From: Deltaproteobacteria bacterium
GTDB taxonomy: Bacteria > Desulfobacterota > Desulfobaccia > Desulfobaccales > 0-14-0-80-60-11
Assembly (NCBI GenBank): GCA_030018495.1
Contig: JASEFS010000019.1
Location: forward strand, 7,664-71,663
Direction of reading: 5' to 3'
Length of the DNA stretch: 64,000 nt
Position 1 is the first letter of the stretch, and each line of letters starts with the position of its first letter. This document shows positions 1-48,011 of this stretch, piece by piece. Position numbers and translations under genes: made by a program. Below the pieces are notes generated by a model. That model made no database searches. It had not been told where the DNA came from and saw nothing but the letters and a program-made list of their open reading frames with translations.

Positions 1-1093
1 GATAGCTTTTCCAGCCGCGTCTTGCTTCCAGGACCTCGCCTTGTCGTTTGCCTACCAGATAGGCGTCCGGGCTGACTTTTCCACCGACCAGATCAGGGGC
101 AAGCCCCCAGACGGCATTGATTATGAGGCGGTCAGGCAGGCAGCTTTCCGGATCCGTGGTGAACATAACGCCCGCAGCCTGAGCCGGAATCAGGGGTTGG
201 ATGAGGACGCTCATGGCCGAATCCTGGGGAGCGATGCCCTGGTCGTGATAATAGCTTAAGGCCCGCGCCGAAAACTGGGAAGCCGCCACTTCCCGCCAGC
301 GCGCCGGCACCTCCTCTGCAGGCACACCGAGAAAACTGGCATAGAGACCGGCAAAGGTGGCAGCGGTATCCTCCAGCGCGCCGCTGGAACGCACCACCAG
401 ACTCCGGCCCGGTTCCGACGCCAACCTTCGGGCTTCTGCCAACAAAGCCCGGGCCAGCTCCTCAGGTACAGGCTGGGCCAGCATCAAGGCTTGCAGATCG
501 TCGGCCGCGGCCTCTACTTCCCGCGGGTTGCCGTAATCGAGCTTTGCCAGTCTGGCTTGCACGGCCTCCTGAAGCGTACCCGACTTCCCGTTCCGGCTAA
601 TTTTTTGTTCCACAAACAGGCGGTATGCCGAAAAGGTGGCCACCACTCCCGGTGGGACGGGAAGCTTCAGATCCATTATCAACCGGGCCAGATTGGCGGC
701 CTTGCCGCCGAGGCTGGCCAAGTTATCCGGCGTTGCTTCTTCAAGACGTACCAATGGGGGCCCGGCAGGTAGTGGGGGATGAGCGGCCAAACGCTCGGAT
801 AAGGCTTCCTGGATTCTGCCGCGCACCTCATGCAGCTCCGGCCATCGCCCGCCCGACATCTTCAGCAGGGAAGCCACCAGATTGCGGATCTGCACATCAA
901 GGGCGGCTACCGCGGCCCGCAGTGACTTGAGATCTACGGCATGGCGGCCGGCCAGCTTTTCCTCCAAATCGCCCATCAGGGCCAGGGCTTCATTATTGGC
1001 GGCCAGGAGTTCCTGGAAGCCGTGAAATATTTCCCTGAGACCCGGAGCAGTACGGGGCAGCTTTTGGCGGCGGAAAAAATCAAGGAAGCCCAT
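1..1093 (-). CDS. PEP synthase/pyruvate,water dikinase-like protein, paralog 1 (3' part outside window; absent from ORF track)
   Basis: Manual translation from ATG 1093: MGFLDFFRRQ...FQELLAANNEALALMGDLEEKL...LGGKAANL...LVVRSSGALEDTAATFAGLY. Same N-terminal block and ATP-grasp motifs as the other three paralogs. Confidence 0.88.
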   Translation of the reverse strand, partial: MGFLDFFRRQKLPRTAPGLREIFHGFQELLAANNEALALMGDLEEKLAGRHAVDLKSLRAAVAALDVQIRNLVASLLKMSGGRWPELHEVRGRIQEALSERLAAHPPLPAGPPLVRLEEATPDNLASLGGKAANLARLIMDLKLPVPPGVVATFSAYRLFVEQKISRNGKSGTLQEAVQARLAKLDYGNPREVEAAADDLQALMLAQPVPEELARALLAEARRLASEPGRSLVVRSSGALEDTAATFAGLYASFLGVPAEEVPARWREVAASQFSARALSYYHDQGIAPQDSAMSVLIQPLIPAQAAGVMFTTDPESCLPDRLIINAVWGLAPDLVGGKVSPDAYLVGKRQGEVLEARRGWKSY

Positions 1094-1373
1094 AAGCAAA
1101 TTTCATCAAAAATTTGGCATTCGGTCTTTACGAAAATTATACCCGATTTAAGGTTTACGACAGGGGTAAAGATCGGTCCGATTTGGTTCTTTTGCGGAAA
1201 GGAAATCGGGTACTTTTTACCCATGCTCATTTTAGACTCAGGAACTTACAGCTTTTACAATGTGTAAAAATTCCTGACAGAATTTTTCCAGAAAGGGCAG
1301 GGAAAATTTTTTAAAGCAGGCGTATCCTCTTTGGTTCTCAATGCTTAAATTATTTCCAGCCTCGGATGGCAAT

Positions 1374-1388
1374 TGGCACGGGCATTGC
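1374..1388 (+). promoter_or_regulatory. sigma54 (-24/-12) promoter
   Basis: TGGCACG-GGCA-TTGC is an exact match to TGGCACG-N4-TTGC, ~90 bp upstream of the 1481 operon. Inverted repeat TTTTACA-atg-TGTAAAA at ~1253-1269 is a possible UAS. Confidence 0.75.
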
Positions 1389-1480
1389 CTAATTAAGGAA
1401 AAAAGTGCGGTTTACTCCGGCGAGCTCAACATAGGGGCCGCCGCTTGAAAATAGTCATTTTATCTCACGGAGGTATTTAA

Positions 1481-1774
1481 GTGAAAAAGTTTCCTGCTCT
1501 TATCCTAAATTTTCTCCTGCTCGCCCTGCCCGCCTTAGTCTGGGCTGCCGGTCCGGGAGAAAAAGCCCCGGATATGGCAACCCGCCAGGTAAAGGTGGAA
1601 GGCATCTCTTTTATCAATGCCTTTTTTGCCGGCTGGTACAACGACAACAAGATGGTGTTCGCCATCATCGTCACGGTGATCATGGGCCTGGTTGGGGGCA
1701 TCATCGCCTTTGTCACTGACATAATCCTGAAATTTATCGGGATGGATGTCAGCAAAATCGAGCACCACGAATAG
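1481..1774 (+). CDS. Small membrane protein, DVU0150-like partner of TSUP
   Basis: GGAGG RBS, signal peptide, one TM helix, WYN...G...D..L...G.D.S...HE pattern, directly upstream of a TSUP gene. Confidence 0.7.
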   Translation: MKKFPALILNFLLLALPALVWAAGPGEKAPDMATRQVKVEGISFINAFFAGWYNDNKMVFAIIVTVIMGLVGGIIAFVTDIILKFIGMDVSKIEHHE

Positions 1775-1796
1775 CTGGGATGGGAGGAATATAGGC

Positions 1797-2810
1797 ATGC
1801 TGGAAATGTTTAATGTGTACCTGCCAATAGCTGAGTTGCATTTCAACGCCTTCATCCTGGTGGCTATCGGCTTTTCCGTAGGGGTTTTGGGCGGCTTCTT
1901 CGGGGTAGGCGGTGCTTGGGTCGTCACCCCGGCTCTGAATATTTTCGGCTTCCCCATGGCTTACGCCATCGGTACGGATTTGGCTCATATTTTCGGGAAA
2001 TCCATTGTGGCCACTGCCAAACACCGGAAGATGGGCAATGTGGACATGAAATTGGGCTTTTTGTCCATAATCGGTTCCGTGATCGGCGTGGAGGCCGGCG
2101 CCCAGACCGTCATGTGGCTGACCGCCAAAGGTTTTGCCGGACCTGTGGTGCGTTATACTTACATGCTTCTCCTGTTCGGTTTGGGCATCTACATGCTCTA
2201 TGACTATGCCACCAAAGACAAGCGGGCCGCAGCCAAGGCAGCCAAAACGGCTAATCCTGGTGCTGCCGTGATGGCGCCGCGCAAGGCCTGGAACTTGCCG
2301 CCCATGGTCCATTTTCCGGTTTCCGGCATTACCATTTCCTTTTGGACGGTCATGGGAGTGTTCTTTTTCACCGGCTATCTTTCCGGGTTTCTGGGGGTGG
2401 GCGGCGGCTTCATCCGCATGCCGGCCCTCATCTATCTGATCGGCTGTCCCACGGCCATTGCAGTGGGCACTGACCTGTTCTCGGTGCTCTTTTCCGGGGC
2501 TTACGGCTGTTGGACATACGGGGTGAAAGGCGCGGTGGACATTATCGCGGCTCTCTACATGCTTGTCGGCGCCTCCATCGGAGCACAGTTGGGCGTCACC
2601 GCGGTGAAATATATCCGGGGCTATGGCATTCGGCTCCTCTTTGCCATCATGATCATCCTGGCCGGGACCTCCGTGGCTTTAAAGCAATTCAATCTGACCA
2701 CTGCGGCAGCCTGGTTGGTTATGAGCGCGGCGTTGGGCATGTGCGCCATTATTATGTTCAAGCTGTGGGTCGGCTTTAAGAAGGAAAAAGCCGAAAAGAT
2801 GGGCCTTTAA
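1797..2810 (+). CDS. TSUP family transporter (sulfite exporter TauE/SafE)
   Basis: Duplicated GFFGVGG / GFLGVGGG and AIGTDL / AVGTDL motifs, multiple TMs. Start moved to ATG 1797 after GGGAGG. Confidence 0.92.
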   Translation: MLEMFNVYLPIAELHFNAFILVAIGFSVGVLGGFFGVGGAWVVTPALNIFGFPMAYAIGTDLAHIFGKSIVATAKHRKMGNVDMKLGFLSIIGSVIGVEAGAQTVMWLTAKGFAGPVVRYTYMLLLFGLGIYMLYDYATKDKRAAAKAAKTANPGAAVMAPRKAWNLPPMVHFPVSGITISFWTVMGVFFFTGYLSGFLGVGGGFIRMPALIYLIGCPTAIAVGTDLFSVLFSGAYGCWTYGVKGAVDIIAALYMLVGASIGAQLGVTAVKYIRGYGIRLLFAIMIILAGTSVALKQFNLTTAAAWLVMSAALGMCAIIMFKLWVGFKKEKAEKMGL

Positions 2811-2830
2811 TCAAGAGAGGAGGATGACTT

Positions 2831-3250
2831 ATGAAAATCTTGGTGCCTGTGGACGGTTCGGACTTCTCTCTAAAGGCCCTGGAAACCGCGTGCGATATGG
2901 CCAAGGCCCAGGCTCCGTCCTCCATGGTTCTGGTTTCCGTGAGCATGGTCCTGCCCGAGTTGGAAGAGGGAGCTTATATCGCGGAAAAAATGAAGGCCAT
3001 TGCAGAGGCCGCTTTGGACAAGGCCAAAGGAGTGGCTTCAGCCAAAGGGATGACCCCCTCCTTGATTTTGGCCTCCGGGGTTTCGCCGGCGGATGAGATA
3101 GTTAAGGTAGCCAAGAATGAGAACGCCGACCTGATTGTGATGGGCAGCCGGGGCTTGGCCGGCAAAGGCAAGTATTTCCTGGGCAGCACCGCTTCCCAGG
3201 TGGTTACTCACTCCCATTGCTCCGTCCTGGTGGTGAAGACGCCGGAGTAA
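2831..3250 (+). CDS. Universal stress protein
   Basis: KILVPVDGS...DLIVMGSRG...LGSTA...VLVV. Confidence 0.95.
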   Translation: MKILVPVDGSDFSLKALETACDMAKAQAPSSMVLVSVSMVLPELEEGAYIAEKMKAIAEAALDKAKGVASAKGMTPSLILASGVSPADEIVKVAKNENADLIVMGSRGLAGKGKYFLGSTASQVVTHSHCSVLVVKTPE

Positions 3251-3284
3251 TAGGGTCTATATAGCGGTTGTTGCTTTCCCCCTC

Positions 3285-3312
3285 AGGCGGCCCTCAGGGC
3301 CGCCTCCTTTTT
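3285..3312 (+). terminator. Rho-independent terminator (group IIC intron target)
   Basis: AGGCGGCCC-tca-GGGCCGCCT followed by CCTTTTT, after the USP stop. Confidence 0.8.
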
Positions 3313-3566: not shown

Positions 3567-3580
3567 TTATCACACCCTCA

Positions 3581-4124: not shown

Positions 4125-4151
4125 CTTTTATCAAAAAGGATTATTTTAAAA

Positions 4152-5876
4152 TCAATAAAATAGCAGCAAATAGACCGAAGCCAGGGCCACGGTGATGAGC
4201 ATGGGAATCATGCAGGCCTTCATATAATAAAGAAATGAGATGTGATAGCCCGCCTTTTCGGCCAGTCCCACAGTGACCACGTTGGCGGAGGCGCCGATCA
4301 TGGTGCCGTTGCCGCCGAAGCAGGCCCCCAAGGCCAATGCCCACCACAAGACGCCGCTTTCCGCGCCGGGGATGGTGGTGTTTAAATACGCAACAATGGG
4401 GAGCATGGTGGCGGTGAATGGAATATTGTCGATAGCCGCGGAGGCCAGGGCCGCCACCCAGACTATCAGCAGGATCGCCACCGGCAGCGACCCCCGGGAC
4501 ATGTTCGCCACCCATTCGGCGATGGCCTGGATCAGGCCTGTCTCTTCTGCGCCCGCCACCACAATGAACAATGCCATGAAAAAGACCAGGGTGGGCCATT
4601 CCACTTCATGCTCCAGCATTTCCACGATATTGCCCCGGGAGATGGTGAGCAGCACCATGGCTCCGGTCAGCGCGGCGATGGACGGCTCCATGTGCAGGAC
4701 GCCGTGAATAATGAACAGAAAGATGGTGAAGGCCAGCATCCCCAGAGACAGTATGAGCAGCTTTTTATTAGTGATCTTATATTCTTCCCTCAAATATTCG
4801 ATGGTGCGGCCCACATCCTTGACTTCGGCTTCCAGGTAGGACTTCTTGTACCAATAAACGTAGTAAATCAGGGTGACCGCCATGCAGATGCCCACAATGC
4901 CGGTCAGGTTCATCACAAAATCCACAAAGGACAGCTTGGCATAGGAGCCGATGAGGATATTGGGAGGGTCGCCGATCAGGGTGGCGGTGCCGCCCACATT
5001 GGAGGCAAAGACCTCGGGAATCAAAAACGCGATGGGGTTGACCTTGAGGGTGACCGCGATCTCAATGGTCACCGGGATCATAAGGAGCATGGTGGTGACG
5101 TTGTCCAGGAAGGCGGATGCCACCGCGGTGACCACCATCAAGATGCAGGACAGGACGAACACGTTGCCCCGGGCGATGGCGTAGGACTTGAAGGCCAGCC
5201 ACTGGAACATGCCGGTTTTTTTCAGGACCCCCACAATAATCATCATGCCCATGAGCAGGAAGATGACGTTCATGTCCATGGCCGCCATGGCGTCCTCAAA
5301 AGACAGGATAAAGTAGTTTTTGTCAAAGGTGCCCGCGGTATAGGATATGAAAAGTATTACTGCGGCCCCCAGGAGCGCGGCCAGGGTGCGGTGCATCAAT
5401 TCCGCGGCAATGATCACATAGACCAAAATCAGGATGCCGGTGGCCAGCCAGAAAGCGGGCGTGATCTTGCGGAACATATTGAAGGTCTGGTTCGCCTGGA
5501 ACAACCGGTTGCCGTGCTGGTCCACTCCGGCTTCCAGGACCTGGACCGGGCTGGGCTGAAGATCCCGCCAAGCGGGCTTGTGGGCCTTAACCTCCACCTT
5601 GGCGGCCGGCAGGGAGCCTGCGGGCAAAATTACCTCCGCCATAAAGGCTCCATGCTTGCCGGTGACGACCTCTTCCCCGTCCACGGTCTCCTGGTGCCGG
5701 CCGTTGACCAGCACTTCCACTTCCACCTCCTTGACGCCCTTGCCCTGGGGATTTTTGATGACTCCGGATACGGTCAGCCGGTCTCCCGGCTCCGGCACGG
5801 CCGCGAAGCCCCAGACAACGCTGCAAAACAGGATGGGCAAAAGGAACGCTCCTGTCAGACGGATGACTCTGAACAT
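4152..5876 (-). CDS. ArsB/NhaD (IT superfamily) permease with N-terminal periplasmic beta-sandwich-like domain
   Basis: SAFLDNVTT, SNVGGTATLIGDPPN, DNIPF and GGNGTMIGASAN motifs; signal peptide plus ~120 aa soluble domain. Confidence 0.92.
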   Translation of the reverse strand: MFRVIRLTGAFLLPILFCSVVWGFAAVPEPGDRLTVSGVIKNPQGKGVKEVEVEVLVNGRHQETVDGEEVVTGKHGAFMAEVILPAGSLPAAKVEVKAHKPAWRDLQPSPVQVLEAGVDQHGNRLFQANQTFNMFRKITPAFWLATGILILVYVIIAAELMHRTLAALLGAAVILFISYTAGTFDKNYFILSFEDAMAAMDMNVIFLLMGMMIIVGVLKKTGMFQWLAFKSYAIARGNVFVLSCILMVVTAVASAFLDNVTTMLLMIPVTIEIAVTLKVNPIAFLIPEVFASNVGGTATLIGDPPNILIGSYAKLSFVDFVMNLTGIVGICMAVTLIYYVYWYKKSYLEAEVKDVGRTIEYLREEYKITNKKLLILSLGMLAFTIFLFIIHGVLHMEPSIAALTGAMVLLTISRGNIVEMLEHEVEWPTLVFFMALFIVVAGAEETGLIQAIAEWVANMSRGSLPVAILLIVWVAALASAAIDNIPFTATMLPIVAYLNTTIPGAESGVLWWALALGACFGGNGTMIGASANVVTVGLAEKAGYHISFLYYMKACMIPMLITVALASVYLLLFY

Positions 5877-5930
5877 GATTTACTCCTTAGGGGTAATATG
5901 ACCTTACGAGGCCTGACGGATAACCGGGCA

Positions 5931-7914: not shown

Positions 7915-8421
7915 ATGCCTAACGCAACCAAAGTCAAGGATCTTATGATCCCTCTGGAGGATTATCCGCACATCCCGTACTGGTTCACCCTGCGCCAGGC
8001 CATGGCCATCGTCCGGGAGGCCTCCATTAAGTATGAAGGGTTTATGCCCAGGTCGGTTCTGGTTTTTGATGAAAAATATCAGCTCATGGGCATGTTGACC
8101 CTGCGGGACATCATAAAGGGCCTGGAACCTCAGTTTTTAAAAGAAACAGCCCTAATAAAGGTTGATCCCAGCCTCACCATACTCACCAAGGACCTGTTCG
8201 GCCCCGGTTTGAAGCAGGCTTCCCAAAAGCCGGTAAGCGAAGTCATGAGCCCCATCAAGGTGATGGTTAATGCTGATGATCCCATTGCCAAGGCCTTGTT
8301 CCTGATGATCAAGGAAAATGTGGGCATGATGCCGGTCATGCAGGAAAAAAAGGTGGCGGGCATGATTCGCCTGAGCGACCTGTTCAAGGTCGTCTCGGAT
8401 GCCGTGCTGGGTGATGAATAA
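7915..8421 (+). CDS. CBS domain protein
   Basis: KVKDLMIP...GMLTLRDI...VSEVMSP...MPVM...GMIRLSDL; two CBS repeats. Confidence 0.9.
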   Translation: MPNATKVKDLMIPLEDYPHIPYWFTLRQAMAIVREASIKYEGFMPRSVLVFDEKYQLMGMLTLRDIIKGLEPQFLKETALIKVDPSLTILTKDLFGPGLKQASQKPVSEVMSPIKVMVNADDPIAKALFLMIKENVGMMPVMQEKKVAGMIRLSDLFKVVSDAVLGDE

Positions 8422-8497
8422 TCTCCATTGCCGGAGATTCCGCAGGGGCCGCTCTATTGCCACTTCCTAGCGCTCATTAGAGAAGGAGTCAGTCATT

Positions 8498-10030
8498 ATG
8501 GCTGAAGAACCCAGAAAAATGCCGGTAGGCGAAGGCCTGCCGGAAATGCCCGAAGAGATCGTCCTGGCTCCGGTGAAGCGGGTCATAGACTGGAAACGCG
8601 TGTTTTTCATCTTGTTGGGACTCGGCATATTCTTGCTCTTTTATCTGATTCCGGGCTTGCCCGACGCGGTGGACCCCAACGGCAAAGTTTTCACCTTGTC
8701 CTGGACCGGGAAAATGGCCCTGGGGCTGTTTCTTATGGCCGGCACCTGGTGGGTCTTTGAGGTCATGCCCATCGGCGGCACGGCCATCGCCATCGGCCTG
8801 TTTCAGACTTTATTTTACATCCGGCCCGCCAAAGAGGCCTTGCGGGACTTTCTTGACCCCTCCGTCTGGTTCATCTTCGGCTCTGTGGTCATCGGTCTGG
8901 CCTTCACCCGCTCCGGCTTGACCAAACGTATGGCTTACAAAATGCTGAATGTGGTGGGGGAGCGCACCAACTTCATTTTGCTGGGGTCGTTTATAGTCAC
9001 CGCGGCCATGACCCTGCTCATGGCCCACACCGCGGTGGCCGCCGCCATTTTTCCTCTGCTCCTGGCCATTCACAGCCTCTATAGCGATTCGGATGAGCCC
9101 ACCCGGTTCGGCAAAGGCCTCTTTATCGGCATGGCCTGGGTGGCCGGCGCCGGCTCCATCATCACCTACTTGGGAGCCGCCCGGGGCGTGGCTGCGGCCG
9201 GGATGTTCAAAGAATTCACGGGCCATGATATCGGCTTCTTTCAACTCACCTGGTACATGTTCCCCATCGGCTTCCTCATGGTGTTCCTCATCTGGCTGAT
9301 CATCATCATCTGCTTTCGGCCGGAGCGGCCGCGCATCGAAGGCTTGCGGGAGAAAGCCATCGAGCTGGCCAGGGAGCTGGGTCCCCTGAACCCCCGGGAA
9401 AAGTTTGTCATCTTCACCATGGTGGCCGTTATTGTGCTGTTCATGCTCAAGTCCTTCGCCCCGTATAAAGTCCTGCAAGACCTGGATCGGGCGGGCATTA
9501 TGCTGACCGCCACCGTGGCCTTTTTTCTTACCCGGACCCTCACGGTGGAAGACTTGGAGGCCATCCCCTGGAACATTATTCTGCTCTTCGGCGGGGCCAT
9601 GAGCATCGGCTTTTGCCTGTGGCAGACCGGCGCGGCCCAGTGGCTGGCGGTGCACTGGCTTACCCTGTTCCTCAAGGCCAACTGGCTGGTGTTCGTGCTG
9701 GGCATCGCCTTCTTCGTCCTGGTAATGACCAATTTCATCATGAACGTGGCCGCGATCGCCATTTCGCTCCCGGTGTCCCTGGTCATCGCCAATTATTTGG
9801 GGGTGGCGCCCCATGTGATTCTCTTCGCCTCCCTGGTGACCGCGGGGATGCCCTTCAACCTCTTGATCGGCGCGGCGCCCAATGCCATCGCGTATGAGAG
9901 CAAGCAGTTCACCACCGGCGAGTTCTTCGGCTACGGCATGATTCCCAGCGCCGTGCTCATGGCGGTCCTGGCGGTCTTTGTTTATCTGATTTGGCCGCTC
10001 ATGGGCATGCCGGTGGTCGTAGCTAAGTAG
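8498..10030 (+). CDS. SLC13/DASS family permease
   Basis: WWVFEVMPIG, IPWNIILLFGG, TNFIMNVA, APNAIAY; many TMs. Confidence 0.9.
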   Translation: MAEEPRKMPVGEGLPEMPEEIVLAPVKRVIDWKRVFFILLGLGIFLLFYLIPGLPDAVDPNGKVFTLSWTGKMALGLFLMAGTWWVFEVMPIGGTAIAIGLFQTLFYIRPAKEALRDFLDPSVWFIFGSVVIGLAFTRSGLTKRMAYKMLNVVGERTNFILLGSFIVTAAMTLLMAHTAVAAAIFPLLLAIHSLYSDSDEPTRFGKGLFIGMAWVAGAGSIITYLGAARGVAAAGMFKEFTGHDIGFFQLTWYMFPIGFLMVFLIWLIIIICFRPERPRIEGLREKAIELARELGPLNPREKFVIFTMVAVIVLFMLKSFAPYKVLQDLDRAGIMLTATVAFFLTRTLTVEDLEAIPWNIILLFGGAMSIGFCLWQTGAAQWLAVHWLTLFLKANWLVFVLGIAFFVLVMTNFIMNVAAIAISLPVSLVIANYLGVAPHVILFASLVTAGMPFNLLIGAAPNAIAYESKQFTTGEFFGYGMIPSAVLMAVLAVFVYLIWPLMGMPVVVAK

Positions 10031-10075
10031 GGGTTTGAATTGAGTTGATAATCAAGGTCTGACAGAGGACTGACA

Positions 10076-11797: not shown

Positions 11798-12028
11798 TCC
11801 CATGCCGGCGGGTCGTTTCCGGCGCTTTAAAACGCTGACGCGGCCCGCCTTCACTTTTCGGATAAGCTGCCTGAGGACAGCCGGGTTTGCCTTAAGACTC
11901 GGTGCTCGAGACGTCCTGCTTTTCTTGCTAAATTCAGCTAAATTAGCTAAAATTTTAGAAGAAATCAGGATGCAGATTTTCTTATTTGAGATTTTCATGA
12001 ACGCCTTGGGGGAAGGACGACCGCGCTG

Positions 12029-14587: not shown

Positions 14588-14588
14588 G

Positions 14589-16898: not shown

Positions 16899-16920
16899 GG
16901 AATTCCCCCAGGAGGACCAG

Positions 16921-17331
16921 ATGGCCGAAAGACTGTTAGTTGTTGATGATGAGCCGAACATGTTGAGGCTTTTAAAGACTATCCTGATGGATAAAACCGG
17001 CTATGAAGTGGAAACCACCAACAACCCCCTTGAGGTGGAAAAGATGCTCAAGGAGCAGCCCTACGACCTGGTGGTGACCGACCTCAAAATGCCCTTGGTG
17101 GACGGCATTGATTTAATAGAAATCATCAAGAAAATCGATTCCCAGATCCCCATTATTATCATTACGGCCTACGGCACCATGGAGACCGCCGAAGAGGCCA
17201 TTCAGAAGGGCGCCTACGACTTCATCACCAAACCCTTCCGCAAAGAGAGCATCTTGATAACCATAAAGCGGGCCCTGGAGTGGAAAAGGATGCATCGCGA
17301 ACTGGCCGCCTTGAAAACGCCGGGAGCCTGA
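16921..17331 (+). CDS. Stand-alone response regulator (receiver + short helix)
   Basis: LVVDDE, TDLKMP, ITAYG, ITKPF; GGAGG RBS; no output domain. Confidence 0.93.
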   Translation: MAERLLVVDDEPNMLRLLKTILMDKTGYEVETTNNPLEVEKMLKEQPYDLVVTDLKMPLVDGIDLIEIIKKIDSQIPIIIITAYGTMETAEEAIQKGAYDFITKPFRKESILITIKRALEWKRMHRELAALKTPGA

Positions 17332-17368
17332 TTTTCTCAAAAGGAGCTGAACTCCTCGACCAGCGGGC

Positions 17369-19933: not shown

Positions 19934-20022
19934 CCGCTTGCAGTTCTCTTTTCTCTCATGTTTCAATCTCATTGCATGGGAAGATGTTGCAAAAAGTAAC
20001 GGTAATTATTAATAAAAAGGGC

Positions 20023-20052
20023 TTGACAACTTCGTGAAAGATTTAACATACT
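20023..20052 (+). promoter_or_regulatory. sigma70-type promoter overlapped by a Rex-like box
   Basis: TTGACA (20023) -N18- CATACT; TCGTGAA-AGAT-TTAACAT at 20032-20049 (11/14 to Rex consensus). Confidence 0.5.
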
Positions 20053-20083
20053 AAGCGAATATTTTGGGTTGGGAGGAATGCGC

Positions 20084-21025
20084 ATGGAAATCTATCTTCC
20101 CATTGCCGGGATGAGTCTCAACTTTTTCCTTGTCATCGGCATTGGTGCGGTGGTGGGTTTTCTTTCGGGTCTATTCGGGGTGGGAGGCGGCTTTCTGCTA
20201 ACGCCCTTGATGATGATGATCGGCATACCACCGGCGGTGGCTGCGGCCTCGGATTCCAATCAGATTGTGGCGGCGGCCAGTTCCGGGGCTTTCGCCCACT
20301 GGCGCCTGGGTAATGTGGATTTCAAGCTGGGCCTGATCATTTTGGCGGGCGGCATCTTCGGCGGCACCATCGGCGTGCAGCTTGTGTATTATCTGCGTCA
20401 GGTCGGCAATTTTGAATTCGTTATGAAAGTAGTGTATGTGCTCATGCTGGGGCTGGTGGGCGGCGCCATGTTCATGGAGAGCCTGCGCACCATCATGCGC
20501 AGCCGCAGGCCGGCGTCAGATCCGGTGGTGGTGGAATCCGCCCAGCCAAAACTATCCAGGATGTTTGACAGGCTGCCCCTGAAAATGCACTTCCATCGCT
20601 CGGGCTTGCACACCTCGGCCATTTTTCCCTTTTCCATCGGCACCACCGTGGGCATCATGGCGGCTCTGCTGGGCGTGGGCGGCGGGTTTATCATGGTGCC
20701 GGCCATGATCTACATCATCGGCATGCCCACCATCGTAGCCATCGGCACCGACTTGTTCCAGATTGTGCTCACTTCGGCCAACGTCACGCTTCAACAGGCG
20801 TTTGTCAATAAAACGGTGGACCTGCTCCTGGCGCTGGTGCTTCTTTTCGGCTCCACTATCGGCGCCCAGTTCGGGGCCATGGCGGGCAAGCGTCTAAAAG
20901 GCGAGCAGATCCGGATCCTCCTGGCAATCATCGTTTTGGCCATGACCGTGAAGCTCTTCCTGGATTTGGTCCTGACTCCGGAACATTTGGTCAGTCTGGC
21001 CCCTGCCAAGGGAGGAGGACACTGA
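20084..21025 (+). CDS. TSUP family transporter (TauE/SafE)
   Basis: MEIYLPIA, SGLFGVGGGFLLTP, LGVGGGFIMVP, AIGTDLFQ. Start ATG 20084 after GGGAGG. Confidence 0.92.
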   Translation: MEIYLPIAGMSLNFFLVIGIGAVVGFLSGLFGVGGGFLLTPLMMMIGIPPAVAAASDSNQIVAAASSGAFAHWRLGNVDFKLGLIILAGGIFGGTIGVQLVYYLRQVGNFEFVMKVVYVLMLGLVGGAMFMESLRTIMRSRRPASDPVVVESAQPKLSRMFDRLPLKMHFHRSGLHTSAIFPFSIGTTVGIMAALLGVGGGFIMVPAMIYIIGMPTIVAIGTDLFQIVLTSANVTLQQAFVNKTVDLLLALVLLFGSTIGAQFGAMAGKRLKGEQIRILLAIIVLAMTVKLFLDLVLTPEHLVSLAPAKGGGH

Positions 21026-21026
21026 G

Positions 21027-21824
21027 ATGAAACGGCTTGTCATAATCCTGGCTGCAGTCAGTCTCATGGGCCTGGTCGCCGGAAGGGCCTGGTCAATCAG
21101 CCCCGAAGCACAGAACAAAGTGGTCACCGCGGCTTCCAAGAACGTGATTCAGATCGGGCTTTCCTACCGGGGCGACGAAATTCACTTTTTCGGCGTCAAC
21201 CCGGTGCCGGGGGCCGACGTGATTACCCGGCTGACCGCAGAAAAAGAAGAGGTGATCAAACTCTCCATGAAGGGGAAGGTGGGGCCTTTCTGGATGACGG
21301 TCAAACAGTACGAAGTCACCGGAGCCCCTTTTATTTACAAGATTCACGCCAACAAACCCATCGGGGAAATAATCTCCGAGGAAACCGCCCGGGAACTGGA
21401 AATCGGCTATCCGGCCATTAAAAACAGGATGAAGATGCATTTGGTGCGCGGCCAGGCCGCGCCCGGCGATGCGGATAAGGTCTTCGAGGGCCTGGTCAAC
21501 ATCAAGGAATCGGATAATCTCTATAACATTGTGGAAGATCCCCGGCGCCTGGAAATCGAGGAAGGCAAATTATTCAAACACTATTTCCGCTTTCCCCCTA
21601 AAGCCACCGAAGGCAGCTACCAGGTGGAAACCTTCGCTTTTCAAAACGGCGAACTGGTGGGTTACGGTAAGGATGTAATCGAGATCAAGAAAGTGGGGCT
21701 GGAGAGCTGGCTGACGAAAACCTCCCAGGAGTCCCCGGTGTTTTATGGCATCATGGCGGTGCTCATCGCCATGGGGGCCGGCTTGGGAGTGGGCATGATT
21801 TTCCGGAAGGGAGGGCACCATTAA
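21027..21824 (+). CDS. TIGR02186-like membrane-anchored protein (TSUP partner)
   Basis: Signal peptide, KGKVGPFWM, KKVGLE, C-terminal YG...TM; usual neighbour of this TSUP subfamily. Confidence 0.75.
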   Translation: MKRLVIILAAVSLMGLVAGRAWSISPEAQNKVVTAASKNVIQIGLSYRGDEIHFFGVNPVPGADVITRLTAEKEEVIKLSMKGKVGPFWMTVKQYEVTGAPFIYKIHANKPIGEIISEETARELEIGYPAIKNRMKMHLVRGQAAPGDADKVFEGLVNIKESDNLYNIVEDPRRLEIEEGKLFKHYFRFPPKATEGSYQVETFAFQNGELVGYGKDVIEIKKVGLESWLTKTSQESPVFYGIMAVLIAMGAGLGVGMIFRKGGHH

Positions 21825-22294
21825 TGGCTGCGGAACATGGTAAGCATATCGTGGCGGCGGTGGATGGTTCGGCGCCCTCTTGGGAAGCTTTCGAAACCGC
21901 GGTGACGTTGGCGAAGTTGATGAACCGCCCGGTGGACGTGCTTCACGTCATTCAACTGGTGAAGGCCGGGTACTTCGCGTTTATCGATCGGCATCTGCAG
22001 GAAGAGCATGAGGCTATGGCCCGCAAGATTTTGGATGAGGCAGTGGAGCGGGGCAAAAAAGCCGGGGTGGAAGTGAGCCCCCACATGCTGACCACCGAAA
22101 AGGACCCCAGCAGCGCCATCCTGGAATATCTGGAACAGGCCGGAGAGGTAAAGTTTCTGGTGATGGGCACTTTCGGCCACGGCTTCGTGGCCCGGCATCT
22201 CCTGGGCTCGGTGACCGAGCGGGTCATCCGCGAGGTGGCTCACCGGGGTCTCAAAGTGCCGGTGCTTATCGTGCCCGGAGAAGGGGCCGATTAG
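21824..22294 (+). CDS. Universal stress protein
   Basis: HIVAAVDGS...LVMGTFG...LLGSVTERV...PVLIVP. Confidence 0.92.
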   Translation: MAAEHGKHIVAAVDGSAPSWEAFETAVTLAKLMNRPVDVLHVIQLVKAGYFAFIDRHLQEEHEAMARKILDEAVERGKKAGVEVSPHMLTTEKDPSSAILEYLEQAGEVKFLVMGTFGHGFVARHLLGSVTERVIREVAHRGLKVPVLIVPGEGAD

Positions 22295-22370: not shown

Positions 22371-22388
22371 GCCGGAAAAAGCAACCGT

Positions 22389-23006
22389 TTAAAAAGTCGA
22401 AGCGATTACTTCCACCCGGCCATCCTTCATGTGGTATTTGCTTACCACCAGATGAAGGAGGTTGCGGGCCAGGGCCTCGTCAATGATGCTGCTTTCCCGC
22501 CGCAAGGTTTCTTGCAGGGACGCGATGAACTCAATGGTGGCCGTTTCCACCAGGTCGCGGCCGGTCTTGCCGGTAGCTCGCACCCGGTTCGCCGCCGGGG
22601 CGATCTGGCGCACAATCGCGGAAATATGGCCTTCGTCAAGGTCGGGATGCTCCACGGCTGCGGTCACCGCGCCGCAGCATTCGTGTCCCTTGATTACCAG
22701 CAGAGGCACATGCAGATGGGCTACCGCGTATTCCAGACTGCCGATGGTGGTGGGATCCAGGGTCAAGCCGGCGCTCCGCACCACAAACAGGTCACCCAGG
22801 CTCTGGTCAAAGATGATTTCGGCCGGCACCCGGGAATCGGAGCAGCACAGGACCGCTGCCATGGGCTTTTGTCCTCTGTGCAGACTGCGCCTTAGATCCA
22901 GAAGGTTCCGTCCCATGAAAAAACCCTGGGCAAAGCGCATGTTACCTTCGATAAGCCTTTGCCAAACCTGCTTTCCCTCCAAGGTCTGATTGATGGCGTG
23001 AGACAT
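22389..23006 (-). CDS. Beta-class carbonic anhydrase
   Basis: CSDSRVP, GDLFVVR.AG, GSLEYA, GHECCGAV zinc ligands; AGGAG RBS before ATG 23006. Confidence 0.93.
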   Translation of the reverse strand: MSHAINQTLEGKQVWQRLIEGNMRFAQGFFMGRNLLDLRRSLHRGQKPMAAVLCCSDSRVPAEIIFDQSLGDLFVVRSAGLTLDPTTIGSLEYAVAHLHVPLLVIKGHECCGAVTAAVEHPDLDEGHISAIVRQIAPAANRVRATGKTGRDLVETATIEFIASLQETLRRESSIIDEALARNLLHLVVSKYHMKDGRVEVIASTF

Positions 23007-23117
23007 GTTTATAAACTCCTGCACCAGGGGAAGGGTGAAAGTTCATAGGGTAATTGCCAGCAGGCTTTAGCCTTGATCTGGCGAACGCGGCAAGTGCGGC
23101 TTGCACGAAGCCGAAGC

Positions 23118-23189: not shown

Positions 23190-23205
23190 TGTCGGGTTCC
23201 TTCGG

Positions 23206-23625
23206 TTACGGAGTGGTGGCTTCCAACCTTTTTTTCAGCTCCTTGTTCTGGCGCACCATCTCCCGCCAGCGCATGGCCTTGTCGATGGCCAGCAGGATCT
23301 GCTCTTTGCGGAAAGGCTTGGTGATGAAGTCGAAAGCCCCTTTAGCCATGGCTTCTTCAGCCGACTCCAGGGAGCCGTAGGCGGTAATCACCATGACCAA
23401 CAGGTCTTCATCTTTTTTCTTGGCCGCCTCCAGGAGCTCCATGCCGTCCATGCCGGGCATCTTGAGATCGGTGAGAACCAGGTCAAACTGCTCCTTGTCC
23501 AGCAGCTCCGAGGCTTCCATGGGGTTGTTGGTGATCGATACCTGGTGGTCGGTGTAGCCTTCCACCATCATCTTAAGCAGGGTCAACATATCGAGTTCGT
23601 CGTCAACAGCCAGAATACGTCCCAT
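23206..23625 (-). CDS. Stand-alone response regulator
   Basis: ILAVDDE, TDLKMP, ITAYG, ITKPF; paralog of 16921-17331. Confidence 0.93.
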   Translation of the reverse strand: MGRILAVDDELDMLTLLKMMVEGYTDHQVSITNNPMEASELLDKEQFDLVLTDLKMPGMDGMELLEAAKKKDEDLLVMVITAYGSLESAEEAMAKGAFDFITKPFRKEQILLAIDKAMRWREMVRQNKELKKRLEATTP

Positions 23626-23640
23626 GCTTGCAGGACCTCC

Positions 23641-25902
23641 TCAATTGGCAGCTCGCCGGCCGCTGGCCGCGGCCGGGATTTCAGTTGCCGGCGGCAGAGA
23701 CACAAAAAAAGAGGTGCCGCTTTCGCCGGGGGCCTCTTTTTTCGTGCGGGTTTCGAAACGGATGCGGCCGCCGCATTTCTCAATGATGGCGTAACTCACG
23801 GAAAGGCCCAAACCAGTGCCTTCGCCCACCTTTTTGGTGGTGAAAAAAGGATCAAAAATCCGGTCCACATACTCTTTAGGAATACCTGTGCCGGTGTCGG
23901 CAACCATGGCCTCCACCATGCGGGTATCCGGATTGATGCGGGTGCTGATGGTAAGTTTGCCGCCGTCGGGCATGGCGGCGATGGCGTTGGTGATGAGATT
24001 CAGGAAAACTTGTTGCATTTCTCCCGCATCGCCTCTCACCTTGGGGAGTCCGGGGGTCAGGCGCAGGTCCAAGTCAATTTTTTTGGTCAACAAGGTGTTT
24101 TGCACCAACTTGAGAACGTTTTCCATTTCCTGATTCAGGTCGCAGAATTCATCATGCCGGGTAGGCTGGCGGGCAAAGGTCATCAGGTTTTCCACGATGC
24201 GCTTGCAGTTGAGGCCCTGCCGCTCGATGGTCTTCAACATTTCATATTCTTTGCTGTCCGGAGGAGTGCGGTCCAGGAGCATCTCGGTGAAGCCCAGCAT
24301 GATGCCCACCGGGTTATTGATTTCATGGGCCACACCCGCAGCCAGGGTGCCGATGGAGGCAAGCTTTTCCGTGCGCACCATTTGCTGTTCCATGCGCTGG
24401 CGCTCGGTCATATCCCGGGCGAATACCAGCACCCGCTCCACGGCGCGGCCGTCTTCCCCGTAAAGGGGGACCATATGGGTGGAGAGCCAATAGGTCCGTC
24501 CCCGTATGCGCACTTCGCCCCGGCTTTCGTGATTTCTGCCCGTGGTGACTACATAATTGACATTGTTAAGCATGGCCTCGGCGTCCTCGGGAGCCAGGAA
24601 ATCCATAATGGATCTACCCCGAAGGGCTTGGGCCGGCATGTTGAAAGCTCGGGCCGCGGCGGTGTTGGCCCGCATGATCCGCCCCTGATTGTCCAACAGC
24701 AGAATAAAATCCGGGGAGCGCTCCACCACGGAACGGTACCGCTCCTCGCTGCGCTTGAGGTCCACGGTGGCCTTGTCCACGGCTTTCTGCAGCTCGTCCG
24801 TCCAGCGCCGCTCGTAATAAATAATGGCCATCCCCATGAGCAGCAGGGCGAAGATGAGCAAGCCCTGAATCAGGAACTGGCGAATGTATAAGGAAGAGAT
24901 GGTGCCTGCCACCTCATCGGTGGGGGCCACCACCGCCACCGGCCAGATCCTTACATTCGGCAGGTCTTCATGATGAAGGTCCCGGGGGCCTTGCTGTTCT
25001 ACATGAGCGTGGCTGTAAGCCAGAAATTTTTCCATGCGCTGGATGACTCCCCGGTGCCATCCCGAATAGTATCTGGCCGTGCCCTCATACCCGGCAAGCA
25101 TGCGGGTTTTCTGGATTTCATTAATCTTATCAAAGCTGATGGCCGGGTTGCGCTTGCCCCGGGCGGTGAAGGCGTCCTCGCCGATAAATTCCCGTTCCGG
25201 GTGGTAGAGAAAAATGCCCTGCTGATTGATGATCCAACAGTACCCGCTCCGGCCGGAGCGGATTTCCCGGGCATAGTGGCCGGTAAAGGCGCTGACGTCC
25301 ACCTTGAAAAAGAGCACGCCGTCAAACCCGCCGGGAGGCTTGGGATGCGATTCGTCCACGCTCTCCAGATATATCGGCGTAGCGATGGTCATAAAAGGAA
25401 TTTTAACTGTGCCCTTGGGTTCAACCTGTATCTTTGACTGATATATCTGGCCCTTATTGACAGGGTTATGGGCCCAGACAACTTCGGGCATTTGAGAGAA
25501 GCTCTCATCTGTATACACATGGGGCCCGCTGGCATCCAAAAGGTAAGCCACATGACCATCGTGGCGGATGCGGACGATGGCGGTCACGCCCAGGCGGGAG
25601 AGCTCGCCGAAGCTGACCTGCATGCGGTTGGACCAAGCCACTTCCTCCAAATACTGAACGGCAGGAGAATAGGCGAGAATCTTCAGCTCCCGGCGCAGAA
25701 AAGCCAGGCCGTCCTCGATTTGCCGGGCCGCGGTCCGGGCCAGGATAAGCTGCTGCTGCTGAAAGTCGTCGGCTACAATGTCCTGGGTGCGCTTCAGCGA
25801 CCAAAAGCCCAGGATAAAGGCCACCGCTAACAGGACCACCACCAGGAGCCCCAGAAGCTTGATGACCCGGTTGAAGCCGATTTTTTCAATAGGGTTGATC
25901 AT
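23641..25902 (-). CDS. Membrane sensor histidine kinase (Cache-PAS-HisKA-HATPase)
   Basis: Paralog of 14589-16898 ([36 protein letters not shown]). Confidence 0.95.
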
Positions 25903-25908
25903 ATTATT

Positions 25909-28434
25909 TCAAATATTCAAATTATATCCTGATGTGATGAATTCGTGATAATACTGCTCGACCATGGCGTCGTCCTGCATGGTTACGTCCAGTTGTTTGC
26001 TCACCATGATCAGGCGCCCCAGCACCTCCAGCTTCTCCTCCAGGACGTGAACCGGAAAACCGTCCAGGCGGGCCGTGATGGAATCGCCCTTGAGCTCCAC
26101 CCGGAAGTCCAGGTGCTGCAGTACCTTGGCCAGAAAAAGCACCCGCCGCGCCCGCCGGGTAAGGTCAGCCCCTCCCCCATAAAACACCAGGGTGACGTAG
26201 CTTTCCTCCGGCGCGCCCAGGTACGCGTCGATGGTGGTGAAGTGGTAGCCCAAACGGCTGGAGAAATTCATATAATCCCGGGCGATGATGGCGAAGTTGT
26301 CTTCCTGGAGGCGGTCCTGGGCGCCGGCGTCCGAGGCCGCACCCATGACCACGGAAATGAAGCTGGTCAAATCCAGGGGCTTGGGACCCTTCCAGCCGAT
26401 GGCCGCCACCCCTCGCCAATACGCCAGCATGGGCCGGGAGCGCAGGTCTTCGGGAGTGATGATGGGGGATTCCCGGGCTTCGGGCCTCAGGCCGCCGCCC
26501 ACATCTATGACATAAATCTCCAGCGGCAAATCGCTCTGCAAGCTCCGGGCGTACTCCCTGGACATCGCTCCCCGGGAGACCTTGAAAAGCTCGGTCATGG
26601 CCTTTTCATGGGCAAAGCGGGTGATGTCGTGATAGGTCTCACAGGCCTCGGGGCGGAAGCGCTCGCTTCTGGGATCCAGGAGGTTGAGAGGAGTAATGTG
26701 CTTTAAGGCCCGCTCCAGGGTCCGCCAGGCACGGCTCTGGTGCAGAATGGCGTCCTCCGGGGGCGCCACGAGAAGTTCTTCCTGCCGCCCGGCGTAGACG
26801 TTGCCGTAATAGGCGTCAACGGTCACCAGGTCCCCCTGGTGCAGGCGGCTGGCCGCGTCTTTGGCCCCGAACAGGGCGGGCACGCCCGCCTCCCGGAGGA
26901 CCGTGGCCAGGTGCGTGGTGGCGCTCCCCATCTCGCAGATGACCGCGGCCACCCGGCCCACAGCCAGGCCGTATTCCGGCAGGGCTTGGCGGATCACCAG
27001 CACCGACCCCGCAGGGATTTCCTGGATGTCCTGGTCCCGAAGGATGTGCACCGGGCCGGCCCCGGCCCCCCGGGAGGCGATGACGCCGTTCTCCAGGAGT
27101 ACCGGAACACCCTTGAGCCGCGGCGGCACGTAGCCGGCCTTGGCTTTGCGGCTCAGACGCAAGGGGCGGGCCTGGAGGATGACCAATTTGCCAGCCTGGT
27201 CCAGGGCCCATTCAATATCCTGGGGGACGCCGAAGTGCCGGGCCACGGCTTCGGCAACGCGGGCCAGCTCCATTGCCTGCTCCGGCGTCAGGCAAGGGCC
27301 GGCAAGCTCAGCAACGGCGTATTCCTCAAGGATGCCGCCGGTCGGCGCCAAGCGGTGTATCCGGGTCTTGGCCCCGATATCCTGGGAGACCAGGCGGCCT
27401 TTCTCCACCCGGTAGACGTCGGGTTCGGCCTGTCCGCCCACCGCGGTGGAGCCCAAGCCCCACACCGCGTTGATGATGACAACATCCTCACCCGTGCGGG
27501 GATCGGCAGTATAGAGCACCCCGGCGGCCCTGGCGTTCACCATTTCCATGACGAGCACGCCCATGGCCAGCTCCTGGTATGAATAGCCGCTGGCATGGCA
27601 ATAGTAGAGGGCCTGGGGGGTGAACTGGCTGGCAATGACCTGCTTGTAACGCTCCGCCACCATATCCGCAGGAACGTTCAGGATGCTTTCGAACTGTCCG
27701 GCAAAACTGATGAGGCCGTCTTCCTGGAGTGCGGAGCTGCGCACGGACACCCGGTCAACCCCCAGACGATCCATTTCCTGCGCCAGAGCTTCCGCAAGCG
27801 CCTGGGGCAGCGGGCTGGCCAGAAGGCGCCGCTTGATGGCTTCCCCGGCCTGCCGCAAACTGTCCAGCTGCCGGATGTTGGCCTTGCTGATGGCCTCCCG
27901 GATAAAGGCTTCCAAACCGGCTTCCTCAAAAAACAGTTTTTGGGCATAGGCGCTTACTGCAAAGCCGCGGGGCACCGGAAACCCCTGGCCCAACAACTCT
28001 CCCAGTTTGGCGGCTTTGCCGCCGAAGTAGTGCTGATCAACGGCCTGGCTTAAAGGCAGGGTCAGAGGACCGGGCTTGAGCTCCGGAGTGGCCAGCTCGG
28101 CCTTAAGGCGCGCCGTAATCCTTTGGCGGGCTGCCTCCAAGCCGCGGTAACGTCCTCCGGCCAGAGCGATGAGAGCTTCCACGAGAATCTCCACTTCCCG
28201 GGAAAGCCGGTCGACCGCGCCCCGGACATAGGACATGTCAAACAGATATCCTTCATTGCGCTTGGTCTGGAGATCGGCCAGGATGGCCAGGATGGCGCTG
28301 TTGGCGTGCAGCAGGCGCTTGTAATGGCGATAGCGTTCCAAAAGCGGCGCAGGAGGCCCTGCAGAAATCGGAGGACGGTCCGGCTTCCTTTTTTTTGTGA
28401 GCCATTGTTTTAACTTGTCCAGGGCCTCAGCCAC
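25909..28434 (-). CDS. PEP synthase-like dikinase, paralog 4
   Basis: GGKAAKLGE, VRSSALQED..FAGQF, PQDIEWA, GSATTHLATVLRE, NFSSRLGYH. Confidence 0.9.
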   Translation of the reverse strand: MAEALDKLKQWLTKKRKPDRPPISAGPPAPLLERYRHYKRLLHANSAILAILADLQTKRNEGYLFDMSYVRGAVDRLSREVEILVEALIALAGGRYRGLEAARQRITARLKAELATPELKPGPLTLPLSQAVDQHYFGGKAAKLGELLGQGFPVPRGFAVSAYAQKLFFEEAGLEAFIREAISKANIRQLDSLRQAGEAIKRRLLASPLPQALAEALAQEMDRLGVDRVSVRSSALQEDGLISFAGQFESILNVPADMVAERYKQVIASQFTPQALYYCHASGYSYQELAMGVLVMEMVNARAAGVLYTADPRTGEDVVIINAVWGLGSTAVGGQAEPDVYRVEKGRLVSQDIGAKTRIHRLAPTGGILEEYAVAELAGPCLTPEQAMELARVAEAVARHFGVPQDIEWALDQAGKLVILQARPLRLSRKAKAGYVPPRLKGVPVLLENGVIASRGAGAGPVHILRDQDIQEIPAGSVLVIRQALPEYGLAVGRVAAVICEMGSATTHLATVLREAGVPALFGAKDAASRLHQGDLVTVDAYYGNVYAGRQEELLVAPPEDAILHQSRAWRTLERALKHITPLNLLDPRSERFRPEACETYHDITRFAHEKAMTELFKVSRGAMSREYARSLQSDLPLEIYVIDVGGGLRPEARESPIITPEDLRSRPMLAYWRGVAAIGWKGPKPLDLTSFISVVMGAASDAGAQDRLQEDNFAIIARDYMNFSSRLGYHFTTIDAYLGAPEESYVTLVFYGGGADLTRRARRVLFLAKVLQHLDFRVELKGDSITARLDGFPVHVLEEKLEVLGRLIMVSKQLDVTMQDDAMVEQYYHEFITSGYNLNI

Positions 28435-48001: not shown

Positions 48002-48011
48002 AAACTTTCCC

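Follow-up and report, generated by a model that had tools for sequence, protein, structure and literature searches.

That dikinases of the phosphoenolpyruvate (PEP) synthase (PpsA) type can be fitted with a different acceptor domain is already known: rifampin phosphotransferase (RPH; NF041857) and the PigC/RedH ligases reuse the PpsA-type ATP-grasp domain and swivel histidine together with an acceptor that is not a barrel. Likewise, a gene cluster with a dikinase-like protein has been known genetically from Desulfovibrio since 2014. Here, we describe a stretch of 64,000 nucleotides from a Deltaproteobacteria bacterium (contig JASEFS010000019.1, positions 7,664 to 71,663; the whole stretch is called the window below) in which four dikinase paralogs lie among genes for anion transporters, histidine kinases and receivers. 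This clustering is far beyond chance, and the whole genome contains nine such paralogs. Judged by their sequences, they belong to a large uncharacterised family of PEP-synthase-derived histidine-swivel phosphotransferases in which the barrel is replaced by a two-part module, and we propose, at a probability of about 0.4, that anion permeases are gated by an ATP-powered phospho-switch under the control of a sensor kinase and a receiver. The acceptor module, its stand-alone form next to TauE and the signalling architecture that these findings imply are new. The uptake of sulfate, thiosulfate and sulfite by sulfate reducers and disproportionators, and the regulation of this uptake, are largely unknown; sulfur-oxyanion uptake controls sulfide production and with it souring, corrosion, and sulfur cycling in the gut and in sediments.

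Among the closest described systems is the nitrate cluster of Desulfovibrio, DVU0251-DVU0245 / Dde_0597-0605 (Korte 2014; PMC4001038; the statements made here refer to parts of that paper). It encodes TauE, a conserved hypothetical protein, a PtxB-like binding protein, a histidine kinase, a receiver, a protein described as PPDK PEP/pyruvate-binding plus mobile domain, and a dual-specificity phosphatase. Nitrate resistance in Desulfovibrio arises mainly through loss of these genes: transposon mutants of DVU0246 (the dikinase-like protein), DVU0247 (the receiver), DVU0250 and DVU0251 (TauE) all grow unimpaired at 100 mM nitrate. This common mutant phenotype puts receiver and dikinase at a step before the permease or at the same step. 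The mutant of the phosphatase DVU0245 is nitrate-sensitive, with a fitness of -6.04. The authors guessed at a leaky thiosulfate transporter, and in the parts of the paper considered no role is given to the dikinase gene; the relevant part of a later paper speaks just of putative thiosulfate transporters (PMC9723548). What the dikinase does has stayed without explanation since 2014. A proteomics study of Dissulfuribacter thermophilus from 2026, of which again a part is considered, found the PEP synthase DITHS69_1988 increased by a log2 value of 3.40 in thiosulfate disproportionation, and the adjoining TauE and its partner membrane protein rise too (PMC13490349). DITHS69_1988 is probably a member of the family described here. 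Marietou 2018 mentions dikinase, CBS and histidine kinases nowhere (0 occurrences each), and beyond the genetics of 2014 and the proteomics of 2026 the literature that we searched contained no biochemical function or mechanism for the family.

The four paralogs of the window are the following (coordinates in the window):

2 to 1099, minus strand: dikinase paralog D, N-terminal 366 amino acids (N-extension and part of the ATP-grasp domain; open reading frame and Pfam)
12029 to 14587, plus strand: dikinase paralog A, 852 amino acids (Pfam, alignment, AlphaFold2)
17369 to 19933, plus strand: dikinase paralog B, 854 amino acids (swivel motif PTDH)
25909 to 28434, minus strand: dikinase paralog C, 841 amino acids (swivel motif ATTH with His508)

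The reading frame of paralog D runs past the window edge, with an ATG at 1093 as its third codon; the entire gene encodes 867 amino acids (G000:C16:6159-8762) and is followed by a tandem-Usp gene. In paralog A, the N-extension covers residues 1 to about 118, the ATP-grasp domain 132-446, the swivel domain 482-551 (His517 in PTGH) and the C-domain 575-852 (positions 13751-14584). The paralogs share 37-42% identity with the first one. Pfam detects PPDK_N in 4/4 paralogs (E 5e-53 to 1.5e-92) and the mobile phospho-histidine domain PEP-utilizers in 3/3 complete ones; PEP-utilizers_C (PF02896) was found in 0/4, and the isolated C-domain had no match to it even at E = 10. Since PPDK_N begins only at residue 126-136, the N-extension of about 115-125 residues is real, and in the AlphaFold2 model of paralog C it consists of three long helices (29-61, 67-91 and 98-114). 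A preliminary description made from the DNA alone had claimed four paralogs at these positions, with a helical N-terminal extension of about 110 residues and ATP-grasp motifs in common, and for the three complete ones a T-x-H swivel motif (PTGH, PTDH, ATTH) and a C-domain of about 280 residues with the motifs LNL.DP..F...C.T.HD..RF.HE, NF..RLGYH, GG....R.RR and QLD. Reading frames, Pfam matches and the AlphaFold2 model agree with this description, and every motif is visible in the alignment.

The relationship to PEP synthase covers only the kinase half of the proteins. The best NCBIfam models are PEP synthases, at 293-393 bits against cut-offs of 598-740, and their matches end near residue 560-600; in particular, the best scores of 393.1 and 379.1 bits lie below the equivalog cut-offs of PRK06464 (598 bits) and TIGR01418 (739.75 bits), respectively. 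RPH, PigC and RedH are the next-best models. Similarly, the best sequence matches in the PDB are the PEP synthases 8a8e, 9dae and 2ols (E 1e-67 to 1e-79), and these extend over residues ~120-598 only. In the full-length AlphaFold2 model of paralog C (pLDDT 90.9, pTM 0.83), residues 120-576 superpose on rifampin phosphotransferase 5hv3 (Z 43.0, root-mean-square deviation 2.9, 417 aligned residues), on PEP synthase 2ols (Z 38.6) and on PPDK 1kbl (Z 28.5), and residues 1-119 and 577-841 are covered by none of the listed structural matches. Thus, the paralogs have the ATP-grasp domain and the histidine swivel in the same order as PpsA (TIGR01418 / PRK06464), but they lack the PEP/pyruvate TIM barrel, possess an additional three-helix N-extension and are encoded in a context of signalling and transport rather than central metabolism. 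They also differ from RPH: there, the swivel domain is C-terminal and follows the substrate domain (the 5hv3 match spans chain residues 0-866), whereas here the order is ATP-grasp, swivel, C-domain; the score against the RPH model is 233.7 bits at best, with a cut-off of 999, and the acceptor domains are unrelated. The same genome has, at other places, genes for a canonical PpsA (813 amino acids, all three Pfam domains) and a PPDK, so gluconeogenesis does not depend on the nine paralogs, in agreement with the earlier proposal that they are not gluconeogenic.

The C-domain is predicted to be an alpha+beta domain of no recognised fold and not the PEP/pyruvate TIM barrel. Its AlphaFold2 model, built from a 150-row alignment, is confident (pLDDT 89.3, pTM 0.84) and shows a pair of long helices, an antiparallel meander of four strands, another hairpin and another three helices, an order that is not (βα)8. 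On its own, the domain has 0 sequence matches in the PDB at E <= 10, and Pfam up to E = 10 returns nothing but noise (Hfq_1 at 0.18, DUF6046 at 0.23). An hhalign comparison of its profile with the barrel of the PpsA from the same genome gave a probability of 0.09%. Foldseek against the PDB found nothing at E <= 0.001 (best E 0.011), VIA-align over 48,161 chains reached a Z score of 6.4 at best (1tk1, 136 aligned residues, root-mean-square deviation 3.9; the noise band is 7-8), and a TIM barrel is absent among the best structural matches. The non-canonical C-domain of the preliminary description thus holds up in these comparisons. Coproporphyrinogen oxidase, bilin reductases and the MotA C-domain were considered as relatives and discarded, their Z scores of 6.4 or less being background. 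The same applies to leucine-rich-repeat clusters of the ESM Atlas (0.86-0.88), the only ones returned, which have 77-87 of 256 features in common with the domain and are noise.

An exhaustive search with the C-domain retrieved 1161 representative clusters at E <= 0.001, 518 of them at <= 1e-30. Among the best 150 representatives, 86 are proteins of 815-900 amino acids with the C-domain at the C-terminus; in public databases, family members are named 'pyruvate, water dikinase' or 'PEP/pyruvate-binding domain-containing protein'. All 86 full-length representatives have the swivel histidine, and at least 80 of them retain the ATP-grasp motif residues; therefore, ATP-dependent self-phosphorylation has very likely been retained in the family. 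In the C-domain, H38, D39, H45, H167, R201 and D253 are invariant (86/86), and C34, R42, Y166, N182, R198 and D221 are nearly so. A profile search of reference-genome contigs with a 12-row C-domain alignment confirmed at least 583 loci, which by record title belong mostly to Desulfobacterota orders and to Nitrospirota (Thermodesulfovibrionales, Dissulfurispiraceae). Within the phylum Desulfobacterota the C-domain profile occurs in 59 of 151 genomes and 39 of 115 genera, patchily by family, with 44/61 genomes in the Desulfovibrionaceae and 1-10 copies per genome. A tally with the full-length profile (379 of 401 in the phylum) was discarded as a measure of family size, since the N-terminal domains match canonical PpsA as well.

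The idea of a two-part module comes from shorter members of the family. One class of representatives, 387-404 amino acids long, has the N-extension joined directly to the C-domain, with no ATP-grasp domain, no swivel and no Pfam match. That they are genuine genes is shown by their occurrence on contigs as long as 194 kb and by a cluster in which six members have 404 amino acids. Seven kinase-less genes were found in metagenome loci, six of them directly downstream of TauE and a 233-amino-acid membrane protein with an N-terminal signal and a C-terminal transmembrane segment; at the seventh locus only 1 kb of upstream sequence is available, and at none of the seven is a histidine kinase adjacent. 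Because the N-extension and the C-domain stand alone beside TauE, the two-part module appears to be the transporter-linked unit and the dikinase cassette an insertion: we infer that the N-extension and the C-domain belong together as a single partner module of TauE-type permeases, into which the cassette has been inserted. An intermediate class of 675-741 amino acids was present at 12 metagenome loci (including L104:8717-10747, L106:8603-10828 and L097:4111-6150). These proteins lack residues ~125-298 of the ATP-grasp domain and retain the N-extension, the C-terminal half of the ATP-grasp domain, the swivel histidine and the C-domain. Ten of the 12 genes come after a divergent TauE pair, and they usually precede a histidine kinase, a receiver and a full-length paralog, which suggests phosphorylation in trans between paralogs. 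The motifs RLGYH, NxNY, GG, RRxRR, GD and QLD are kept in every form, and the helix motif H-D...H in all kinase-bearing forms; the latter motif, which is lost in the kinase-less L091 protein, is likely the place where the phospho-histidine docks. A further candidate for a short form, in genome G432 (L088:9189-11785, minus strand), was discarded since it is really a full-length gene split into reading frames of 398 and 462 amino acids, be it a frameshift, a pseudogene or a sequencing error; it is the sole copy in a 1.9-Mb genome of the Desulfovibrionaceae family and lies in an operon of histidine kinase, receiver, TauE, a 229-amino-acid protein and dikinase. Of the fused forms of 1492-4260 amino acids none scored, an outcome that the method itself grades as weak evidence.

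Can the dikinase-like protein of the nitrate cluster be assigned to this family? A locus from another genome of the Desulfovibrionaceae family (L081 in G439) reproduces the gene order of the published cluster. Two of its open reading frames, of 1110 bp and 588 bp, have exactly the published lengths, and the receiver frame measures 366 bp as compared with 360 bp. The dikinase gene of this locus (8348-10927, minus strand, 859 amino acids) aligns with paralog A over residues 21-844 at 30% identity (E 1e-110), including both the N-extension and the C-domain. Judged by this locus, DVU0246-type dikinases are members of the paralog family. A gene of the published length of 2235 bp (744 amino acids) would have no room for the N-extension; its start codon has probably been annotated too far downstream. 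The swivel motif at this locus is A-S-H, hence the threonine of T-x-H is not universal. The nitrate cluster and the window thus share the family and the wiring of TauE, a small membrane protein, a histidine kinase, a bare receiver and a dikinase-like protein. They differ in that the nitrate cluster adds a periplasmic phosphonate-type binding protein and the dual-specificity-type phosphatase and has no Usp or CBS gene, whereas the four paralogs of the window serve transporters of two families.

The genes that accompany the dikinases in the window are:

1746 to 2810, plus strand: TauE/TSUP permease 1 (TauE, E 2.3e-44), divergent from paralog D
2831 to 3250, plus strand: Usp 1, with the G-x2-G-x9-G-S motif
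4152 to 5876, minus strand: IT-superfamily transporter (CitMHS, Pfam), 574 amino acids
5931 to 7664, minus strand: IT-superfamily transporter (CitMHS, Pfam), 577 amino acids
7915 to 8421, plus strand: small CBS-domain protein, the first gene of the co-directional array 7915-22294
8498 to 10030, plus strand: DASS/SLC13-type transporter (Na_sulph_symp, Pfam)
10076 to 11797, plus strand: IT-superfamily transporter (CitMHS, Pfam), 573 amino acids
14505 to 16898, plus strand: histidine kinase 1 (dCache_1-PAS-HisKA-HATPase_c); longest reading frame, true start probably later
16903 to 17331, plus strand: single-domain receiver 1 (start approximate)
20069 to 21025, plus strand: TauE/TSUP permease 2 (Pfam)
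21027 to 21824, plus strand: Alph_Pro_TM protein with N-terminal signal and C-terminal transmembrane segment, the usual partner of TauE
21824 to 22294, plus strand: Usp 2, with the G-x2-G-x9-G-S motif
23206 to 23625, minus strand: single-domain receiver 2, 139 amino acids, last-but-one gene of the paralog C operon
23641 to 25902, minus strand: histidine kinase 2 (dCache_1-PAS-HisKA-HATPase_c, Pfam)

Hence, the array at 7915-22294 reads in one direction CBS, DASS, CitMHS, paralog A, histidine kinase, receiver, paralog B, TauE, Alph_Pro_TM, Usp, and a second unit, on the opposite strand, consists of paralog C, histidine kinase 2 and receiver 2. In all, two TauE and two Usp genes, three CitMHS genes and one Na_sulph_symp gene, single CBS and Alph_Pro_TM genes, and two genes each for dCache-PAS histidine kinases and single-domain receivers were found, matching the transporters and two-component genes that the preliminary description had placed around the paralogs. 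The G-x2-G-x9-G-S/T motif of the Usp proteins is the ATP-binding signature of Usp.

This linkage holds for all nine paralogs, although only 2.7% of the genome lies within 5 kb of one of them. Within that distance are 4/4 CitMHS/DASS genes, 2/2 Alph_Pro_TM genes, 7/20 Usp genes, 8/32 receivers and 6/31 histidine kinases (Alph_Pro_TM, receivers and kinases at BLAST level). Of the nine TauE genes that the Pfam model detects, five lie within 2 kb of a paralog and a sixth at 5.2 kb; a BLAST-level count of 5/6 was discarded as too optimistic. In other genomes, 80 loci were fetched and the 36 with at least 5 kb on each side were counted; 44 were left out for short flanks or lack of a full focal gene. 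Owing to the relatedness of these loci, their counts describe the neighbourhoods and do not serve as a test: within 5 kb, any two-component gene occurs at 30 of the 36 loci, a histidine kinase plus a bare receiver at 24, a CitMHS/DASS or TauE transporter at 25, CBS or Usp at 25, a second paralog at 12, and none of these at 2. Together with the nine paralogs of the genome itself and the published Desulfovibrio cluster with its shared mutant phenotypes, they show that the linkage to two-component genes and transporters is conserved, as had been supposed. Moreover, in a tree of 92 family members the dikinase clades follow the type of transporter: paralog A and a Nitrospirota clade go with CitMHS/DASS plus CBS, and the clades of paralog B and of the copies C52 and C62 with TauE plus Usp. 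The receivers beside the dikinases are canonical phospho-acceptors (50 sequences; D8 and K103-P104 invariant, D9, D53 and T81 in at least 90%). They fall into two subtypes, one with TTNNP...DLKMPG...ITKPFRKE and a C-terminal helical tail of ~25 residues, the other with DVRMPGMDG...LMKP and no tail.

How could these components work together? The preliminary description had suggested a dikinase-type system for signalling or for trapping a substrate, coupled to the two-component pairs and the transporters, and the results above support such a coupling for either role. In the reading that we put at about 0.4, the Cache-type histidine kinase would sense an external (oxy)anion and phosphorylate the bare receiver, which would dock on the dikinase and switch it. 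The dikinase would then move the beta-phosphate of ATP onto its swivel histidine, with release of AMP and Pi, and the phosphoryl group would be passed, at the invariant His-Asp...His/Arg site of the C-module, to a target that activates the neighbouring anion permease; this permease is TauE with Alph_Pro_TM and Usp in some cases and CitMHS/DASS with CBS in others. Overall, the system would be an ATP-driven phospho-switch for sulfur-oxyanion uptake and not a metabolic PEP synthase. The architecture, the conserved catalytic residues, the non-barrel C-domain, the genomic linkage and the published knockout phenotypes are established here, whereas we infer the contact between receiver and dikinase, the phosphoryl acceptor and the gating of the permease as the output. 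The conserved gene set includes no DNA-binding regulator. A bare receiver has to work through contact with another protein, for which the dikinase is the obvious candidate. When paralog C and receiver 2 were modelled as a complex, a comparison that the preliminary description had called for, the ipSAE was 0.53 (0.53, 0.56 and 0.52 in individual runs) against 0.00 for the best control, with at least 90% of the contacts agreeing between runs and a partner pLDDT of at least 82, a result classed as weak support. Of 80 solved complexes, 58 attained the mark applied, as did 2 of 110 mismatched pairs; with an ipSAE of 0.60 or below, however, just 7 of those solved complexes attained it, together with both of the passing mismatches. 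The nitrate sensitivity of the D. vulgaris phosphatase mutant fits a reversible phospho-ester. An extended version of the proposal appears doubtful to us: the receiver-controlled dikinase would be an ATP-to-AMP-driven switch that phosphorylates a protein or ligand to act on secondary anion permeases via a module of new fold, ancestrally the cytoplasmic partner of TauE-type permeases, and paired paralogs under one sensor (such as A and B) would reciprocally determine whether sulfur oxyanions enter sulfate reducers and disproportionators via CitMHS/DASS or via TauE.

Several observations weigh against a phospho-switch. An ipSAE of 0.53 lies in a range where predictions, unless the pairing was already probable, are wrong more often than right, and the prediction returned no interface. 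The phosphatase mutant of D. alaskensis G20 has a fitness of +2.08 as compared with -6.04 in D. vulgaris, and the pooled fitness of DVU0250 (-5.82) conflicts with the isolated mutant (PMC4001038, in part). Since the published cluster has neither Usp nor CBS, these proteins cannot be universal targets. At 11 of the 36 loci no transporter lies within 5 kb, and the adjacency of histidine kinase and receiver could reflect co-regulation only. The kinase-less L091 protein is devoid of H38, D39 and H45, and the existence of kinase-less forms implies that the module works without phosphotransfer. Finally, the invariant His/Asp/Arg/Cys set looks, by sequence, as much like a small-molecule or metal catalytic site as like a protein-docking site.

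The last point leads to a metabolic explanation that we regard as unlikely, though to be taken seriously: the C-module might bind the imported small anion or a common derivative, which the swivel histidine would phosphorylate, in parallel to PEP synthase, rifampin phosphotransferase and selenide water dikinase with their substrates. Six invariant C-domain residues (three His, two Asp and one Arg) along with the near-invariant Cys, a further Arg and two Tyr are typical of a catalytic pocket for an anionic ligand, the dikinase clades co-vary with the transporter type, and this enzyme family has repeatedly gained new small-molecule acceptors, as in RPH, PigC and RedH. Yet the same invariant site is present in paralogs beside the unrelated TauE and CitMHS/DASS transporters, which argues for one common ligand and against transporter-specific substrates, and phosphorylated sulfate, sulfite and thiosulfate are, to our knowledge, not known as metabolites. 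The existence of kinase-less forms speaks against a metabolic role too. Moreover, a bare receiver and a histidine kinase are the commonest neighbours, and the receiver knockout phenocopies that of the dikinase in the part of the nitrate study considered here, which fits a signalling chain better.

A signalling chain could also be arranged differently, with the dikinase as an ATP-driven phosphodonor (from swivel His to receiver Asp) to the bare receiver or as its phosphate sink, and the phospho-receiver acting on the permease. We consider this quite improbable. The neighbouring receivers do carry the canonical acceptor residues, the swivel domain is homologous to that of enzyme I of the phosphotransferase system (PTS), a protein phosphodonor, and the docking score (ipSAE 0.53, control 0.00) lends this arrangement the same weak support, with the same caveats. 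However, a cognate histidine kinase is already present at 24 of the 36 loci, a transfer from His to Asp requires no elaborate invariant acceptor domain, and the kinase-less module accompanies TauE with no receiver nearby. That the paralogs are diverged yet genuine gluconeogenic PEP synthases or PPDKs is scarcely credible. It is true that PEP synthases are their best NCBIfam and PDB sequence matches and that public annotation calls them pyruvate, water dikinases, but the score is 393 instead of 598 bits, the sequence match ends at about residue 598, PEP-utilizers_C is missing, hhalign gives 0.09% and the model is not a barrel, and nine copies lie beside transporters in a genome that has a canonical PpsA and PPDK.

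The phospho-switch preferred here has functional analogies, which are resemblances and no more. In PTS-Ntr (EI-Ntr/NPr/EIIA-Ntr), a swivel-histidine enzyme serves as the regulatory phosphodonor for K+ transporters, and glucan water dikinase is opposed by the dual-specificity phosphatase SEX4, a pairing similar to that of DVU0246 and DVU0245. In contrast to these systems, the paralogs would use ATP and not PEP, no HPr-like carrier was found, and there is no glucan-binding module. If the switch operates as proposed, it would be a new type of two-component output and a new use of dikinase chemistry. The kept ATP/His machinery, the new acceptor module, up to nine copies per genome and the transporter-matched clades turn the puzzle of 2014 into defined experiments.

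A few observations concern the surroundings of the cluster. Directly downstream of receiver 2, at 22389-23024 on the minus strand, lies a gene for a beta-class carbonic anhydrase (Pro_CA, E 1.7e-34), possibly the final gene of the operon of paralog C, histidine kinase 2 and receiver 2; anion transporters are often accompanied by carbonic anhydrases. Just upstream of paralog C there are two reading frames on the same strand (28513-29193, 226 amino acids; 29276-30676, 466 amino acids) with no Pfam family at E <= 0.001. A gene for an MlaC-family lipid-transport protein (31685-32275, minus strand) has no relation to the cluster, which ends here on that side. The G+C content is 0.61-0.64 at positions 46000-62000 of the window, as compared with 0.54-0.59 in the first 46 kb.

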